DNA from: a virus
Taxonomy: Duplodnaviria; Heunggongvirae; Uroviricota; Caudoviricetes
Virus record (IMG/VR): IMGVR_UViG_2585427731_000003
DNA length: 7,546 nt
Direction: 5' to 3' (one strand)
The notes beneath the pieces are model-generated. The model searched no databases and was not told where the DNA came from. It saw nothing but the letters and a program-made list of their open reading frames with translations. Shown in pieces: positions 42 through 7,546 of the stretch (position 1 is its first letter; each line of letters opens with the position of its first letter). The translations under genes were made by a program, and so were the position numbers.

Positions 42-91
42 AATAAGTGATAGTCTTAATACTAGTTTTTAGACTAGTCATTGGAGAGCAG

Positions 92-418
92 ATGATTGAT
101 GTCTTAGGACCGGAGAAACGCAGACGGCGTACTACACAGGAAAAGATCGCTATTGTTCAGCAGAGTTTTGAACCGGGAATGACGGTCTCCCTTGTTGCCC
201 GGCAACACGGTGTGGCAGCCAGCCAGTTATTTCTCTGGCGCAAGCAATACCAGGAGGGAAGTCTTACTGCTGTGGCCGCAGGAGAACAGGTCGTTCCTGC
301 CTCTGAACTTGCTGCTGCCATGAAGCAGATTAAAGAACTCCAGCGCCTGCTCGGCAAAAAAACGATGGAAAATGAACTCCTTAAAGAAGCCGTTGAATAT
401 GGGCGTGCAAAAAAGTAG
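92..418 (+). CDS. insC: IS2 transposase OrfA (InsC), helix-turn-helix DNA-binding subunit; 108 aa here, ending at a TAG immediately after the A6G slippery run
   Basis: ATG at 92 gives [56 protein letters not shown]...EYGRAKK, which matches IS2 InsC as I recall it. The track ORF 47..418 is the same frame with a spurious upstream extension. A GGAGAG Shine-Dalgarno-like motif lies a few nt upstream of the ATG. Confidence 0.85.
409..415 (+). other. A AAA AAG heptamer, candidate -1 programmed ribosomal frameshift site joining insC to insD
   Basis: AAAAAAG sits at 409-415 at the end of the orfA frame, with the orfA stop (TAG 416-418) directly downstream. orfB is open in the -1 frame from here to 1320. 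This is the standard IS3-family arrangement. Confidence 0.7.
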
Positions 419-1320
419 ATAGCGCACGCGCCCTTATTGCCCGGGGATGGGGAGTAAGCTTAGTCAGCCGTTGTCTCCGGGTGTCGCGTGCGCAGTTGCA
501 CGTCATTCTCAGACGAACCGATGACTGGAAAGATGGTCGCCGCAGCCGTCACTCAGATGATACGGATGTGCTTCTCCGTATACACCATGTTATCGGAGAG
601 CTGCCCACATATGGTTATCGTCGGGTATGGGCGCTGCTTCGCAGACAGGCCGAACTTGATGGTATGCCTGCGATCAATGCCAAACGTATTTACCGGATCA
701 TGCGCCAGAATGCGCTGTTGCTTGAGCGAAAACCCGCTGTACCGCCATCGAAACGGGCACATACCGGCAGAGTGGCTGTGAAAGAAAGTAATCAGCGATG
801 GTGCTCTGACGGGTTCGAGTTCCGCTGTGATAACGGAGAAAAACTGCGAGTCACGTTCGCGCTGGACTGCTGTGACCGTGAGGCACTGCACTGGGCGGTC
901 ACTACGGGCGGCTTCAACAGTGAAACAGTACAGGACGTCATGCTGGGAGCGGTGGAACGCCGCTTCGGCAACGAGCTTCCGGCGTCTCCAGTAGAGTGGC
1001 TGACGGATAATGGTTCATGCTACCGGGCTAATGAAACACGGCAGTTTGCCCGGATGTTGGGGCTTGAACCGAAGAGCACGGCGGTGCGGAGTCCGGAGAG
1101 TAACGGCATAGCAGAGAGCTTCGTGAAAACGATAAAGCGTGACTACATCAGTGTCATGCCCAAACCAGACGGGTTAACGGCAGCAAAGAACCTTGCAGAG
1201 GCGTTCGAGCATTATAACGAATGGCATCCGCATAGTGCACTGGGTTATCGCTCGCCACGGGAATATCTACGGCAGCAGGCCAGTAATGGGTTAAGTGATA
1301 ACAGGTGTCTGGAAATATAG
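415..1320 (+). CDS. insD: IS2 transposase OrfB (InsD) catalytic region, expressed as an OrfAB fusion by -1 frameshift; DDE/rve integrase core
   Basis: The -1 frame is open from 415 to the TAG at 1318-1320. The track ORF 481..1320 (GTG-initiated) is the same frame: ...[14 protein letters not shown]...[11 protein letters not shown]...[11 protein letters not shown]...[13 protein letters not shown]...[19 protein letters not shown].... This matches IS2 InsD from memory. The canonical GTG start (GTGGATAGC in the reference as I recall it) reads GTAGATAGC here. Confidence 0.8.
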
Positions 1321-1472: not shown

Positions 1473-3320
1473 TTAAAAAAACTCTTTTCCTGTTGTAAAC
1501 ATGCCTTCGGGAAGACGCGCACCGTTAACTGAAGAAAATATAGGACCATAATATTGCTTGTTATAGCTTTGTTGAAATGAAATATATCCACCACCATATC
1601 CGTTATCTGACATATTTACTTGAGAAAAATAACAATTAATTGTTGACGCATCAATAGCTCTAAACTGCTGCATGAATCCGCATTGGCCAACAACAACATC
1701 ACCATCATCTTCTTTTCTTATTAAAATAGGAAGGTGAATCCAGTTAAAATTCCTTGCGCTCGTAGCCATATGTGTATACACGCGCTCGCAAATAATATCA
1801 TCACCAGATGTTTTATTTATTGCATAATTTGTCACGTTTGCTCCATCGCCAAATATAGTTTCAGCAACATAGCTATATGTAGATGACGAAACTGTAAGCG
1901 TTGATGCTGTATGTAGTGTTACATGCCTTGATAAGAGCAATTTAGGAGCATAACCAGAATCAAGGTTATAGGATGCATTTTCTGTCCTCAACCTTTGAAG
2001 AAAATCACTATGACCACCATGGTATGTACCGAAGAACTTTCCAGTTGATAATTCTTTTGCAGCAAACTCTGTTGCTCCATTCCCACCGAAGTAATATGAA
2101 GGCTCCCCATTCACAAAAGGAGTTATTGTTGCTATAAAATTGTCATAATCTAGTAATTCACAACATCCAAGGCTAAAAACGTTTAGCCCAACGAGATTTG
2201 CAGGTTGAAGCGTTGTCTTATCTGTATTTTCAACTTTAAGATACCAAGTTCCTCCAAGTCCATTTATTTCAATATCAATAGGAAGTGGTGGCTGACCACC
2301 TGGTAATGTTTTTGTGTCAACGATCTTTTGCGTTATCCAGTCAGCGTTGTTTCTGCTTATTGATATTGTTACTGACTTACTTGATGCATTAGAGCATGCA
2401 AGTCTGACATGCGCTATGCTATTTGTTAACCTGTATGTTACATAAGCGTTTGTGGAAATTGAATAAACTTGAGGTGTGTTAAGGGTGAAATCACCTTGTT
2501 CTGTTTCCGCGTGTATAGCGTCATCTGTTTTAGAAAAGCCATACAATGTACTTATTTGAGATTCAGTAAATGAAGATAGGGAGACGCCAGTGTCACTTTT
2601 TGTATGTGGTGATAATTTTGCGATAACTGCATCACTTACCATATATACCCTTCCAGGCAAAAAAGGTGATCCCCCGCCATAGTTATTCGAGTCTGATGGT
2701 GAAACCTCATTTGTTACTCTATGAGAAATATATTTTCCTTTCCCATGACATCTTTTACTTATAATATAAAAGTCATTAGAATTTTCATCTTTGACTATTG
2801 CTTTTATGTGTGTTGTTATTGTAGGTGATGTTGGGGGGATGATTGATGTCACAAAGTTAACATCTATAGATTTTCGCACATTAATAAATTCATCATCTAT
2901 ACTAGTAATTTTATCTTTTAACGTTCCATCTTCATATCCAATATTTTCAGTCCCATCAGGACCTGCGAGAGACTTTGATAGTTGATCCGGGTCATACTTC
3001 AGAACATTCGGAAAATAGAACTGCTGCGCACCATACGCATCATAAACAGCCATAGAGTGGCCTTGCACGGTTACAAACTTGGCAATCTGTCCGTTATATA
3101 CCGGATATCCAGCAGCGTTAATGATGATTGGTTGCGAAACAGGAACGTGAGAACCGTCTTCATTTTCCACATAAACCTGAATCTGGTTTTCATGATTTAC
3201 CGGGTCAGTGTCAATTTTACCGATATAAATTTTACCATTAGCTACGGCTTTAAAAGAACGAGCCATAGTGAAGAGTTGCGAAGGCATTCCTATAACCACA
3301 TTTGGTGTTATATTAGTCAT
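1473..3320 (-). CDS. Phage tailspike protein: P22 gp9-like N-terminal head-binding domain (~115 aa) fused to a divergent, AT-rich receptor-binding domain (~500 aa) of unknown fold
   Basis: From the ATG at 3318-3320 the product starts [59 protein letters not shown]...[15 protein letters not shown]...NVLKYDPDQ. This closely matches the P22 tailspike N-terminus as I remember it ([42 protein letters not shown]...NVLKYDPDQ). AGGA lies ~10 nt upstream of this ATG. The track ORF 1473..3422 extends 34 codons further upstream from a GTG, which I regard as spurious read-through. Stop is TAA at 1473-1475. Confidence 0.85.
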   Translation of the reverse strand: [615 protein letters not shown]

Positions 3321-3423
3321 GTGTGCAATCCTATTAGACTTGTTTGATAAAGAAGATAATGGAGTTAATGCTACAAATGACGCTATTGATTTGAAAAATG
3401 ATCTTCTATTCATATTAAACACA

Positions 3424-3450
3424 CATTAATGCAGAAAATTTGCATTAATG
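3424..3450. promoter_or_regulatory. Perfect 10-bp inverted repeat CATTAATGCA-(7 nt)-TGCATTAATG in the spacer between the ejection-protein gene and the tailspike gene; candidate operator or weak terminator/attenuator
   Basis: Directly visible: 3424-3433 CATTAATGCA, spacer GAAAATT, 3441-3450 TGCATTAATG. Each half contains the self-complementary octamer CATTAATG. It lies ~100 nt upstream of the tailspike ATG and ~60 nt downstream of the preceding stop. Confidence 0.3.
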
Positions 3451-3511
3451 TAAGCAAAAAGCGCAATCAACTCCATAGCAATTTAATTTTTAACTGTAAT
3501 TTACATCTACA

Positions 3512-5509
3512 TTACCATGACAACGCATCAGACTTAGCCCCCTGCGTCATAGCGTTAATGGCCTTTTGCGCCTGCTGCATGGCTTTCTCGAACACTGTTG
3601 ATCCGCGTGGGGTGTTTGCCATTCGGAGCATTGCATTTCTGAATGGCTCGCTCTCATAGGCGCGAGTAAGAAGTCCGTAGCTTACTGCTGCGCCAGTTGT
3701 TGCAGGGTTCATTGCCGTCCCATACCCGATAATGAACGGGATGGTTTGCTGGCCTGTTGGTGTTGTTACAGCCGCTTTTGCAGCCTGCTGCGTTGATTGA
3801 AGGTAGTTTTTCAATCCTTTCAGATAAGCAGCATCCTGACCTTTAAATGTGATGCCAGTCTGGTTTTGCAGGATGTTAAGCTGTCGAAGGAACTGATCAG
3901 GTGAACCACCTGATTTCTCCATCGCCTTTCCAATGATGCCATTGCGCATTTGCGCCCTGCCAACACGACCAACTGAGTTATACAGCGTCTTAATTTCCGA
4001 TTTGTTCTTGCTGAATAGCATGTTGTTGACAACTTCCGGCGTCAGATCGCCTTTCATGAGAACATTCTTCAGCCTGGTATTCTTTAGTTTCGCGGCTTCG
4101 TCAGCGTAGACGGCATTGGCCTGCTGATATTTACGGAGAGTATCGTTGCCAAGATTCTGACCAATGGCACCATTGATATCGTCGGTCATTGCCTTGTAAA
4201 CGCGCTGAATGGCAGCATCGGAACGGTTTGGTAACACTGGTCGCTCACCCTTCACGTCCATTCTGAACTGGCTGCGCAGATCGCTTAATTGCTTCAAATC
4301 CAGATTTACCGGACCATCAGGACCAGCATTGCGAACAAGCTCATCACGATAGGACTGAAGTTTTGAAATGGTCTCGTTATCAGCAACCTTACCAAGCTTC
4401 TGCAGGTTAGATATTTCTGTATCAATCTGCTGAATTGCTCTTGCAGGCTGAATGTTTATTCCCGCCATAGCATTCTGAACCTGCTCCAGTCGATTTCCTG
4501 CAGCGCGACGAATTCCTGATGTTTTCGCTTTAAGGCTGTCAATAACAACCGCTGGATCATACTCACCGAATTTATCAGCAAATCTCTGAACCAACTGGCT
4601 TCTCGCTTCCTGTTGCGTTGCTCTCATTCCGCTTGTGCCAGCCAGGGGGATATTTTCTGCTGTCGTTTGCGCCATTTTTCCGACGCGGGAAGTAGGCTGT
4701 AACAGGTCTGTGGTGTGCAGAGGCACTCCTTCACGCTCTGCAAATCTGATAGCTTGCTGCGCTTCTGGTGCAATAGCACCACGAACGCCACGATAAGCAG
4801 CGCCTAATCCACGTCCGGCAGCGTTAATAGCGCCGCCAGCCAGAAAGCCAATGCCTAAATCGGTAGCGAGTGCTTCCGCATCATCTTTCGCACTATTTGC
4901 AGCAAGTGACCCGACTGCGTTTTCAGCGAGAAGGCGAGTTGCACCCTGAGCGATTCTACCAGCGAGTGTTGGTGCCTGTGTTGCCGCTCTCTCAATGCCA
5001 GCAGGAGTGAGGTAAGGCAATGCCTCAGCAAATACCCTGCCCTCTGTAGTTTGTGGAGTCAGCGCGCCTTGCTGAAGGCCAAAGTCCTGCTCTAATCCCT
5101 GCGTTGTTACTCGTGGCGCTGGGGGATATGTCCCATCGCCAATTCCGAGTTTACCGCCAGCCCAAGCCGCCGCGCTTGTTACAGCATCGGCAACTGATGC
5201 AGGTATGTTTGCCACGTTCACGCCAGCCTGCACCAGTCCGCGACCAGTTTCTTTCACGGCTTCACCAAGATCCGACATAAATCCACTTTGCTGTGGTTGT
5301 TGCTGTGATACTGGTTGTTGTGTCTCCACTGGCTGCACAGATGGCAATGGATAGGCAGCATAGAAAGCTTTCTTAGCCTGCTCTGCATTTTCTCCGGCTT
5401 GCGGGGCAACGACTTCATTGAAGTATTGCTCCTGAGCCTGCGCTTTTTGTTCTGGTGCTAACGCCTGATACTGTGGAGAGGCGATAACATCTTTCCATGC
5501 TTTAGCCAT
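3512..5509 (-). CDS. Probable P22-like ejection (DNA-transfer / internal virion) protein, 665 aa, gp16-position homolog; Q/P-rich linker and Gly/Ala-rich segment
   Basis: Long minus-strand ORF at ~55% GC, ATG at 5507-5509 with a GGGGTGA Shine-Dalgarno-like motif upstream, stop TAA 3512-3514. The function is inferred from its position immediately upstream of the tailspike in a P22-like layout (14-7-20-16...9), from its size, and from low-complexity linkers. I do not recognise a specific family by eye. Confidence 0.5.
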   Translation of the reverse strand: MAKAWKDVIASPQYQALAPEQKAQAQEQYFNEVVAPQAGENAEQAKKAFYAAYPLPSVQPVETQQPVSQQQPQQSGFMSDLGEAVKETGRGLVQAGVNVANIPASVADAVTSAAAWAGGKLGIGDGTYPPAPRVTTQGLEQDFGLQQGALTPQTTEGRVFAEALPYLTPAGIERAATQAPTLAGRIAQGATRLLAENAVGSLAANSAKDDAEALATDLGIGFLAGGAINAAGRGLGAAYRGVRGAIAPEAQQAIRFAEREGVPLHTTDLLQPTSRVGKMAQTTAENIPLAGTSGMRATQQEARSQLVQRFADKFGEYDPAVVIDSLKAKTSGIRRAAGNRLEQVQNAMAGINIQPARAIQQIDTEISNLQKLGKVADNETISKLQSYRDELVRNAGPDGPVNLDLKQLSDLRSQFRMDVKGERPVLPNRSDAAIQRVYKAMTDDINGAIGQNLGNDTLRKYQQANAVYADEAAKLKNTRLKNVLMKGDLTPEVVNNMLFSKNKSEIKTLYNSVGRVGRAQMRNGIIGKAMEKSGGSPDQFLRQLNILQNQTGITFKGQDAAYLKGLKNYLQSTQQAAKAAVTTPTGQQTIPFIIGYGTAMNPATTGAAVSYGLLTRAYESEPFRNAMLRMANTPRGSTVFEKAMQQAQKAINAMTQGAKSDALSW

Positions 5510-6317
5510 TAATCACCCCATAGCGAAGAAAAGTTACTGCCAGTAGTAGATTGTTGCCCTGGCATATTCTGCACCGGCTCCTGATAATCAAACTGTTTTT
5601 TAACAGTGCTCAACTTGCTTTCAAGCTGATTTCTAATCTTTCCGATAGAGTCACGAAAAGCCTTTTCACTCATTTTGGGGCTTAGGGCACCAACCGCATC
5701 GGATAATTTTTTACCCTCTGCATCTGAAAGAGCGCCCATACCCTTCAGGGACTGCACCATAGGAAGGAATGTTTGAGCTTTAAAGGTGTCGAGCCTTGCT
5801 TCAAAGTTAGCCGCATCAGAGCCGGGAACTGTCGGAAACGCTGAGCGAATTCCTACTGCTTTTGAAAGGCCGGGGCTTTGCTCTATCTCGTTGAGAGAAT
5901 CAAGCGCGGTGCTGAACGTATCAACTGCACCCTGAGCGGCGGCCTGCCTGTCCGCGCGGGCTATGTCAGCCTTTTGCCGAACATCTGCCTGTTTCTGTTT
6001 TAGCTCTTCAAGCTTTAACTGATTGCTTTCTCTGGCTATCTGTCTGTCCAGAGCCTTTTCTTGTAATTCTGCTCTTTGTATTTCTCGGGAAAGAGCAGCA
6101 TTCTGTGCGCTGATGTTCTGTCCACGTATCTGGATGTCCTGACCTCGAGCTGTTAGTGCTTCTCCTGCCTGATTGCTGCGGATTGTCTCTGCCAGCCTGC
6201 CTCGGTCAATCTCACGACCAGCCATCTTGTCCTGAACATTGAAGTAATCAATCGGACCAAGAGCAGCCATTCCAAGGTGATCAACAAACTCACCAAATCC
6301 TGAAGGATTCTGCTGAT
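5509..6317 (-). pseudogene. 3' portion (at least 253 codons) of a probable ejection-protein gene (gp20-position), 5'-truncated by the IS629-like insertion at 6318
   Basis: Track ORF 5509..6270 (-). The same frame stays open upstream of the M at 6268-6270 right up to the IS boundary (...NQQNPSGFGEFVDHLG-MAALGPIDY...), and the first stop in that frame lies inside the IS (6343-6345). There is no convincing Shine-Dalgarno before the ATG at 6270. The protein is coiled-coil-like and K/E/Q/R-rich. Its stop overlaps the next gene's start (TAATG, 5507-5511). Confidence 0.55.
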
Positions 6318-6342
6318 TGAACCGCCCCGGGAATCCTGGAGA
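6318..6342. repeat. Left terminal inverted repeat of the IS629-like element
   Basis: TGAACCGCCCCGGGAATCCTGGAGA. The partner repeat is outside the window, so pairing cannot be confirmed here. Confidence 0.55.
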
Positions 6343-6371
6343 CTAAACTTCCTGAGAAAGAGGTAAACAGG

Positions 6372-6698
6372 ATGACTAAAAATACTCGTTTTTCCCCCGA
6401 AGTCCGTCAACGGGCAGTCCGTATGGTTCTGGAAAGTCAGAGCGAATATGACTCACAATGGGCGACAATTTGTTCCATTGCTCCAAAGATTGGCTGTACG
6501 CCGGAGACTCTGCGTGTCTGGGTTCGCCAGCATGAGCGGGATACCGGGGGCGGTGATGGAGGGCTCACCACCGCTGAACGTCAGCGTCTGAAAGAGCTGG
6601 AACGTGAAAATCGTGAACTGCGCCGCAGTAACGATATCCTTCGCCAGGCTTCCGCTTATTTTGCGAAGGCGGAGTTCGACCGCCTCTGGAAAAAATGA
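6372..6698 (+). CDS. IS3-family (IS629-like) transposase OrfA, 108 aa, helix-turn-helix plus leucine-zipper-like C-terminus
   Basis: Track ORF 6372..6698: [57 protein letters not shown]...[45 protein letters not shown] lies ~8 nt upstream of the ATG. Stop is TGA at 6696-6698, immediately after an A6 run. Confidence 0.85.
6690..6698 (+). other. A6 run plus in-frame stop (AAAAAATGA); candidate -1 frameshift window joining orfA to orfB
   Basis: AAAAAA at 6690-6695 is followed by the orfA stop. The -1 frame has ATGATG at 6695-6700 and stays open to the window end. Confidence 0.5.
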
Positions 6699-7546
6699 TG
6701 CCACTGCTGGATAAGCTGCGTGAGCAGTACGGGGTCGGACCGCTATGCAGCGAACTGCATATTGCCCCGTCAACGTATTACCACTGTCAGCAACAGCGAC
6801 ATCATCCGGATAAACGCAGTGCCCGTGCGCAGCGCGATGACTGGCTGAAGAAAGAGATACAGCGCGTATACGATGAAAATCACAAGGTATACGGTGTGCG
6901 TAAAGTCTGGCGTCAGTTGTTACGGGAAGGTATCAGAGTGGCCAGATGCACTGTGGCACGTCTCATGGCGGTTATGGGACTTGCCGGTGTTCTCCGGGGT
7001 AAAAAGGTCCGTACGACCATCAGCCGGAAAGCCGTTGCCGCAGGCGACCGCGTAAACCGTCAGTTCGTGGCAGAACGACCTGACCAGCTGTGGGTGGCTG
7101 ATTTTACTTACGTCAGCACATGGCGGGGCTTCGTCTATGTGGCGTTCATCATTGATGTGTTTGCCGGATACATCGTGGGGTGGCGGGTCTCATCGTCCAT
7201 GGAGACGACATTCGTGCTGGATGCACTGGAGCAGGCGTTATGGGCCCGTCGACCGTCCGGCACGGTCCATCACAGTGATAAAGGTTCTCAGTATGTATCG
7301 CTGGCCTACACACAGCGGCTTAAGGAAGCCGGATTACTGGCATCAACAGGAAGTACAGGCGACTCGTATGACAACGCGATGGCGGAGAGCATCAATGGTC
7401 TTTACAAAGCGGAGGTAATACACCGTAAGAGCTGGAAAAACCGTGCAGAAGTGGAACTGGCCACACTCACGTGGGTGGACTGGTATAACAATCGACGATT
7501 GCTGGAAAGGCTGGGCCATACTCCTCCGGCAGAAGCAGAAAAAGCT
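6695..7546 (+). CDS. IS3-family (IS629-like) transposase OrfB, DDE/rve catalytic domain; 3'-partial (runs off the window)
   Basis: I translated this frame by hand from 6695: [284 protein letters not shown]. No stop occurs before 7546. D (LWVADFTY), D (HHSDKGSQY) and E ([10 protein letters not shown]) are spaced as in retroviral-integrase-type transposases. It is absent from the ORF track, presumably because it has no stop within the window. Confidence 0.8.

Follow-up and report, generated by a model that had tools for sequence, protein, structure and literature searches.

A tailspike gene from an Sf6/P22-like prophage remnant with an uncharacterised receptor module, predicted to be built of beta-sandwiches, and an upstream Tat-like leader

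The receptor modules of tailspikes set the strain range of a phage and are exploited as a source of enzymes that degrade capsule and O-antigen. Beta-helix folds predominate in surveys of phage depolymerases, alongside some beta-propeller and triple-helix folds. In the closest described systems (Sf6 gp14, P22 gp9 and the tailspike of HK620) the head-binding domain ends at a YDPDQ hinge, the receptor part behind it is a trimeric right-handed parallel beta-helix, and the gene lies after the ejection-protein genes, beside int and the attachment site (att). To our knowledge, all characterised P22-type tailspikes (P22, Sf6, HK620, CUS-3) are enzymes. A modular tailspike with an exchanged receptor module is a well-known kind of thing. 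Here we analyse the tailspike gene in a 7,546-nt stretch of DNA (IMG/VR record IMGVR_UViG_2585427731_000003), referred to below as the window. The gene has the same hinge and the same place as those of Sf6, P22 and HK620, but its receptor part is predicted to consist of beta-sandwiches and matches theirs neither in sequence nor in fold.

Head-binding anchor and exchanged receptor module

The tailspike open reading frame (ORF; minus strand, 1473-3320, taken from the ORF list and its translation) encodes 615 amino acids plus a stop, and AGGA precedes the ATG at 3320. The exact protein is present in public collections as WP_032224743.1, where it is labelled 'head binding family protein' and comes from a single 7,546-bp contig. 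Its first 113 residues (2982-3320, minus strand), up to and including the YDPDQ hinge (residues 109-113, within NVLKYDPDQ at 105-113), are covered by Pfam PF09008 Head_binding at E 2.9e-65, over profile positions 1-113 of 113. An initial annotation, made by reading the window alone, had rightly seen a P22-type head-binding domain here but had called it near-identical to that of P22: the domain is in fact closest to Sf6 gp14 (105 of 113 residues, 93%), against 81 of 112 (72%) for P22 gp9.

Behind the hinge the resemblance stops. Every alignment with a solved tailspike (Sf6, P22, HK620-type) ends at residues 115-119. At the DNA level the similarity found in 1,120 E. coli genomes ends at about nt 338-393 of the gene, the exception being seven genomes with the whole gene (7 of 5,426 complete E. 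coli genomes). Composition changes as well: GC (guanine plus cytosine) content is 36.4% in the C-terminal part of the tailspike (23% at third codon positions, GC3) and 41.3% in the head-binding part, against 50.8% and 48.8% in the two ejection genes (GC3 44%). With a standard error of about 1.3 points, this drop of 14 points over 1.5 kb is far above sampling noise. The low value had been noticed before, although set against neighbours at about 55%; the ejection genes lie near 50%, and values of 53-55% belong to the flanking insertion sequence (IS) elements. The four Cys motifs previously pointed out in the C-terminal part were found in their places, and the tailspike has seven Cys in total.

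The proposal of a horizontally swapped module, unrelated to the P22, Sf6 and HK620 domains, is thus supported by a junction at the classical YDPDQ hinge and by the lack of any characterised tailspike matching the C-terminal part. Taking ORF, Pfam match, alignment ends and GC together, the original observation holds as a whole, with small corrections. The protein would accordingly be described as the tailspike of an Sf6/P22-like temperate podovirus, whose receptor module was probably exchanged by recombination at the hinge.

Searches of the C-terminal part against the Pfam, NCBIfam and PHROG families gave no match, and neither did searches of the PDB with the single sequence and with two close-family profiles. 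Among 50,697 phage records a homologous module occurs in only two groups: the Aeromonas phages PhAER-3 and PhAER-4 ('hypothetical protein', 34.5% identity to the module) and Vibrio phage vB_VpM-PP270 (ORF22, 'tail spike protein', 25.7% identity, encoded directly after baseplate wedge genes). In both the alignment spans 70-82% of the protein, whereas the N-terminal anchors and the virion types differ (a myovirus baseplate; a 115-kb phage). All matches in the phage database are hypothetical or putative proteins, in line with the expectation that no characterised tailspike would match over the full length.

The family becomes much larger in general protein collections. A search of 5.8 billion proteins yields a close family of 38 clusters (31-99% identity, E <1e-44) from Enterobacter, Citrobacter, Siccibacter, Providencia, Aeromonas and metagenomes. 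With a profile run against 1.84 billion representatives, a broad family emerges: 261 proteins at E <=1e-3 and 193 at <=1e-10, where each of the 261 stands for a cluster at 50% identity. In the aligned close homologues and in the representatives listed, the module is C-terminal, and the anchors ahead of it are of several kinds: Head_binding PF09008, Tail_spike_N PF18668, the tail-collar fibre N-domain PF12571, BppU_N and the T7 tail-fibre N-domain. Many relatives of the module match PHROGs named 'tail spike' or 'tail fiber'. Some distant relatives have very strong matches, to phrog_7992, phrog_36390 and phrog_23412 ('tail spike'/'tail protein') and also to phrog_34776 ('haemolysin-type calcium binding'), which means that the wider family is already present, unnamed, in isolated phages. 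Given its C-terminal place behind varied phage anchors, the module is, as judged from these alignments, a mobile distal receptor module of phage tails from an unnamed family. In the literature we searched, nothing was found on this accession, on tailspikes combined with mutarotase, or on depolymerases combined with a supersandwich.

Predicted fold and candidate activity

We modelled residues 113-615 as a monomer with AlphaFold2 from a 37-sequence alignment. The model (predicted local distance difference test, pLDDT, 91.1; predicted template modelling score, pTM, 0.86) begins with a linker of low confidence that includes a single long helix; the roughly 450 residues behind it are nearly all beta-strand. 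The receptor part is predicted to be all-beta, but it is not a beta-helix, unlike P22, Sf6 and HK620, and this prediction agrees with the earlier suggestion of an uncharacterised fold. Four segments can be delimited, all on the minus strand. The linker with its predicted helix (residues 114-157, helix at about 134-155; 2850-2981; pLDDT 53-68) is a possible trimer neck. A first beta region follows (residues 158-270; 2511-2849), delimited by pLDDT >90 and by conservation; it holds N213, invariant in close homologues, and the near-invariant Arg221 position. Next comes a beta-jelly-roll resembling the carbohydrate-binding module (CBM) families CBM6 and CBM35 (about residues 275-385, borders approximate; 2166-2498). 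The last segment, which holds the most conserved block, is a predicted galactose-mutarotase-like beta-supersandwich (residues 388-615; 1476-2159).

The middle domain comes nearest to a recognised family. Foldseek found no global match for the whole model in the PDB (query TM-score <=0.25) and aligned only CBM-sized pieces; these were CBM6/CBM35 modules at probability 1.0 and target TM-scores of 0.5-0.6. A broad profile of 75 distant members agrees, matching CBM35 (2w3j, E 1.7e-5), CBM6 and CBM36 over the middle region. The close-family profile finds no CBM6/35 relative, and Pfam gives no CBM match on the window protein. The view that the low-GC part is no recognised domain needs qualifying to the extent of this one distant resemblance, and stands for the remainder.

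For the sandwich the evidence is structural. When the whole model is used in place of residues 388-615 alone, about 35 more residues align to GH174 and mutarotase folds, with a higher Z. Because of these extra residues, and because Arg221 lies in the first beta region, we suspect that residues 158-270 complete the supersandwich in the model and that the CBM-like domain is inserted between its two parts. The predicted fold of the module is not found among solved phage receptor proteins. It is shared with the endo-alpha-1,3-L-fucanases of glycoside hydrolase family GH174 (PDB 8jd7 and 9k1g, the latter with fucotetraose), to which identity is only 6-11% without a sequence-level relationship, so that placement in a CAZy family by sequence fails. 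The GH174 enzymes come from marine Bacteroidota and act on sulfated fucan, whereas the module is phage-borne. In one of them, Fun174A, the critical residues are D119, E120 and E218 (PMC11943901). The predicted module likewise has the beta-supersandwich fold of the aldose 1-epimerase superfamily. Homology to galactose mutarotase is nevertheless unsupported: hhalign against E. coli GalM returned a probability of 0.24%, and Pfam Aldose_epim (PF01263) does not match the tailspike at E <=1. The mutarotase superfamily and the rhamnogalacturonan lyases of polysaccharide lyase families PL4 and PL26 differ from the tailspike in being non-phage proteins that are not known to form trimers. In the PL4/PL26 lyases and the GH174 endo-fucanases the supersandwich is the catalytic domain.

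Conservation was scored in the same 75 distant members, which have a mean identity of about 17% to the window protein. Invariant among them are His434 (together with Gly435), Lys588 and Tyr590; Arg221 is kept in 73 and Gln552 in 70, position 418 is always Asp or Glu, and position 437 is Glu (61), His (13) or Gln (1). The conserved residues fall in the motifs G-A-x-(D/E)-(F/Y)-A, (S/T)-Y-H-G-G-(E/H) and Y-N-K-x-Y-Y-G-P. That polar and charged residues stay invariant across receptor-binding proteins (RBPs) of many hosts suggests conserved chemistry rather than conserved ligand recognition. Together with the catalytic use of the fold in GH174, PL4 and PL26, these fixed residues lead us to favour, with about even confidence, a polysaccharide-cleaving enzyme (lyase or hydrolase) with an attached CBM. 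The CBM-like domain would bind the surface polysaccharide (O-antigen or capsule), which would be cleaved in a supersandwich cleft lined by Arg221, Asp/Glu418, His434, Glu/His437, Gln552, Lys588 and Tyr590. The chemistry may be beta-elimination, as in a His/Tyr/Lys-type lyase, or hydrolysis, and cleavage would let the short-tailed virion reach the outer membrane. Domain composition, family, predicted fold and conserved residues are shown by the analysis; catalysis, substrate, trimeric state and cleft position are proposals.

Several points weigh against such an enzyme. In glycosidases and lyases a mutarotase-like sandwich often serves as an accessory domain and has no catalytic part. The clustering of the conserved residues in one cleft is conjectural, the model is that of a monomer, and homology at the sequence level is not demonstrable to GH174, PL4, PL26 or mutarotase enzymes. 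Annotations and searched literature contain no characterised family member, and no enzymatic assay exists. Finally, the present hosts differ in their O-antigen cluster, which is O19 in strain TW11681 and another type in strain LR-45 (two of the strains with the gene), so that no substrate can be proposed. The comparison with the host O-antigen locus, which the initial annotation had recommended, was made and gave no substrate for this very reason: the same tailspike is found in TW11681 (O19:H45) and next to the different cluster of LR-45. The wzy of TW11681 occurs in 80 genomes.

Three other explanations were weighed against a cleaving enzyme. The one that survives best, and which we consider rather probable, is that this copy no longer functions and is an intact-looking ORF left to drift in a defunct prophage, its low GC reflecting foreign origin; as it is about what has become of the gene and not about what the module is, it does not conflict with the other explanations, and its evidence belongs to the prophage context below. 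The second holds that the module is a non-enzymatic, lectin-like domain binding a glycan or protein receptor, in which the conserved residues form a binding pocket or stabilise fold or trimer. The presence of a CBM6/35-like domain and the absence of any enzyme family matched by sequence speak for it. Nonetheless, the pockets of RBPs for different hosts normally vary, whereas here a His, a Lys, a Tyr, an Arg, a Gln and an acidic residue do not change although identity is about 17% and the anchors extend from P22-type to BppU-type, and the best fold matches (GH174, PL26, PL4) use the fold as a catalytic domain. P22-type podoviruses moreover need the O-antigen or capsule layer to be cut or modified, and we regard a purely binding module, the main rival to a cleaving enzyme, as unlikely, though by no means negligible. 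Least convincing, and in our judgement improbable, is a module that modifies carbohydrate without depolymerising it (a deacetylase or esterase, or a mutarotase-like isomerising or binding enzyme): the closest folds are those of aldose-1-epimerase-like proteins in addition to GH174, and YHGG resembles the LHGG around catalytic His104 of E. coli GalM (a lead only), but the profile comparison with GalM lacks significance and places other segments opposite each other in its best local alignment, the wider family does not keep H517 of the 'THM' motif, a Ser-His-Asp or SGNH-type motif is absent, and mutarotation of free sugars has no obvious role for a virion.

An in-frame leader with Tat features

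Directly upstream of the tailspike the reading frame stays open for another 31 codons (3321-3413, minus strand). This extension, MNRRSFFKSIASFVALTPLSSLSNKSNRIAH, starts at an ATG at 3413, runs in frame into MTNITP, has the features of a twin-arginine translocation (Tat) signal and is not annotated by PGAP. Diverged versions exist elsewhere: phage JEP4 (Lederbergvirus) has MNRRLFFKTIASLSAVIPFSSISKSSNRMTN annotated within its tail spike, a gene call in Salmonella Kentucky includes the far more diverged MKRRTLLKSLLGLTSLLPVKFAASQNLQGKST, and a call in E. albertii includes the leader too (positions 3009-3101, 6001-6096 and 4109-4201 of the respective retrieved loci). Across the variants the leader is 31-32 codons long. 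Read directly from the sequences, three diverged variants have in common an RR-x-hydrophobic-hydrophobic-K motif (NRRSFFK, NRRLFFK, KRRTLLK), an uncharged h-region with Pro (mean Kyte-Doolittle hydropathy 1.2-1.4, 0-1 charges) and small-x-small candidate cleavage sites (SLS, SIS, AAS).

The nearest described arrangement is that of WceF from Pantoea stewartii, in which a 28-amino-acid Tat signal is followed by a P22-like head domain and then by a glycan-hydrolysing tailspike body (PMC7949094). Its N-terminal domain (PDB 6tgf) is homologous to the P22 head-binding domain and matches our tailspike at E 1.2e-8. A Tat signal ahead of a head-type domain is the very arrangement suggested here by the in-frame leader; WceF, however, is a chromosomal enzyme of an exopolysaccharide (EPS) cluster with a beta-helix body, whereas the gene described here is phage-derived and has a predicted sandwich body. 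A Tat signal on a phage tailspike is not mentioned in the literature we searched, where the WceF paper comes nearest.

Leader DNA is found in 46 of 5,426 E. coli genomes, ahead of various tailspike genes. Of the 80 IMG/VR loci closest by head-binding domain, nine keep the upstream frame open for 25 codons or more and show the RR-x-hydrophobic-hydrophobic-K motif; between them they carry at least five different receptor modules. In one further locus the frame is open but the motif is missing, and the remaining 70 have no such stretch. In Sf6 a stop codon directly precedes the tailspike and the leader is absent. When the leader and the head-binding domain together served as a protein query, most of the hits were short partial proteins, and the leader was included in just two. 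Differences between the two alignable variants are distributed 7/4/18 over codon positions 1/2/3 (chi-square p ~0.004 against an even distribution), and this third-position bias is a coding signature and indirect evidence for translation. The curated Tat hidden Markov models PF10518 and TIGR01409 do not match the leader at E <=10, these being short, weak models whose marginal hits are dropped by the HMMER filters; no PDB chain resembles the leader either. Against its translation stands the observation that the E. coli variants lack a clear Shine-Dalgarno sequence at the upstream ATG, whereas the annotated ATG has one. A terminator-like scan picked up an AT-rich hairpin (TACATTAATGCA-AATTTTC-TGCATTAATGTG; 3422-3452, minus strand) in the interval from the gp16-type gene to the leader ATG. 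It has a perfect 12-bp stem, a T-rich run comes after it, and 8 nt separate its end from that ATG. Its role may be that of a terminator or of an operator, and we count it as a point against the leader or as an undecided one. In the JEP4-type variant this hairpin is not obviously conserved, and a different short palindrome is present instead.

Two isoforms might be produced of this tailspike and of roughly one in ten of its closest P22-type relatives, the longer of which would be exported by the Tat system to the periplasm and would act there on the lysogen's own surface glycan. Such an isoform would serve in chain-length control, in superinfection exclusion or in receptor destruction at release, and it would be the phage-borne counterpart, and possibly the ancestor, of bacterial enzymes of the WceF/AmsF type. 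Combining both lines, the sandwich module might form a new structural class of virion-borne depolymerase, made of a catalytic mutarotase/GH174-like supersandwich and a CBM, ranging from P22-like podoviruses to BppU-type siphoviruses and meriting a new CAZy family, while the leader yields a Tat-exported isoform. We hold this joint proposal only tentatively and would sooner bet against it.

The prophage remnant and the present state of the gene

The window corresponds to one complete draft contig from E. coli 6-537-08_S1_C1, a diarrhoeal strain, and its ends lie in IS2 and in an IS3-family element. The same order (IS2, tailspike, gp16, gp20 fragment, IS3) recurs at 99.9% identity in six complete genomes: TW11681, 504239, 67-1, WS1933D, S1-NGR-02-A and LR883000. 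TW11681 belongs to lineage L6 of enterotoxigenic E. coli (ETEC) and has serotype O19:H45 (PMC6630672). Gene order is of the P22 type, with a gp16-type gene and a gp20 fragment upstream of the tailspike and intS and tRNA-Arg (argW) downstream, the latter two seen in the identical TW11681 locus as well as in LR-45. The gp16-type gene (3512-5509, minus strand) is intact and, by length and by its position as in Sf6 gene 13, encodes a DNA-ejection protein of the P22 gp16/Sf6 gp13 type with 665 amino acids; a 665-residue homologue is tagged PF26808, and PGAP names the product 'hypothetical protein'. Of the gp20-type ejection protein only a C-terminal fragment is left (253 amino acids; 5509-6270, minus strand), matching just the end of profile PF16928 and marked 'incomplete' by PGAP in TW11681. 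The gp20-type gene (5509-6270 and 6153-6410, minus strand) is cut by the IS3-family element (6372-7546, plus strand; Pfam HTH_Tnp_1 and TW11681 annotation), which interrupts the ejection cluster and reaches the contig end. On the other side, the transposase ORFs of IS2, itself of the IS3 family (47-1320, plus strand; Pfam HTH_Tnp_1 and rve, and TW11681 annotation), separate the tailspike from intS and argW. In TW11681 a further ejection-gene fragment lies beyond the IS and adjoins a truncated dsdX, which indicates that prophage decay removed part of the neighbouring D-serine locus.

The gene thus sits in a decayed Sf6/P22-like prophage at argW, broken by IS2 and IS3. As this remnant is dead, the tailspike can no longer be used on a virion. 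LR-45 carries the same gene, 99.1% identical, in a second and differently decayed remnant next to intS. Both remnants, in LR-45 (locus 18259-23312) and in TW11681 (locus 7381-16648), are at argW and have retained tailspike and intS; they have an identical 191-nt region upstream of the tailspike and have lost most other phage genes. Two IMG/VR viral contigs of 35-38 kb carry the same tailspike. Intact prophages are represented by the IMG/VR records UViG_2698536657_000023 and UViG_2563366827_000004.

Compared to the TW11681 allele (99.8% identical), the window copy has four nucleotide changes, all within 2649-2672, resulting in A217G, R221L and S224R. Codon 221 (2658-2660, minus strand) is Leu (TTG) in the window and Arg (AGG) in TW11681, LR-45 and the two IMG/VR contigs; an Arg221 allele has the accession WP_000182088.1. 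Leu221 is unique to this draft contig, where it reflects an assembly error or else a private mutation that inactivates the protein. Compared to the LR-45/IMG-VR allele, 13 of 15 differing codons are nonsynonymous, with changes on both lineages. Such an excess would fit relaxed or diversifying selection, at numbers too small for a test. Since two remnants that decayed independently both keep the gene unbroken, we also considered whether ETEC has domesticated the tailspike; this idea is unsupported, given the 13 of 15 nonsynonymous codons, the changes on both lineages and the small number of substitutions.

Our view that this copy is rather probably a drifting relic builds on a prophage of which int, tailspike, gp16 and a gp20 fragment are left and which IS2 and IS3 interrupt, on the nonsynonymous excess relative to the LR-45/IMG-VR allele, and on a Leu at a near-invariant Arg position. 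Against it, each of the seven complete E. coli genomes with the whole gene has it annotated as an intact coding sequence (99.1-99.8% identity across all 1,848 nt). An unbroken ORF is likewise present in 62 sequence variants of the 90% cluster and in the independently decayed remnant of LR-45, and 16 substitutions spread over both lineages are too few to test selection.

In this genome, then, the gene is a relic without an evident role. What is new concerns the module: an uncharacterised family with a plausible active site made up of conserved residues, the leader being a separate lead. Depolymerase and RBP predictors would gain a broader set of targets from a family that is this widespread and has another predicted fold. 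If the leader is translated, some temperate phages would export a tailspike enzyme in the lysogen, which would provide a mechanistic link from phage tailspikes to bacterial EPS-modifying enzymes such as WceF.

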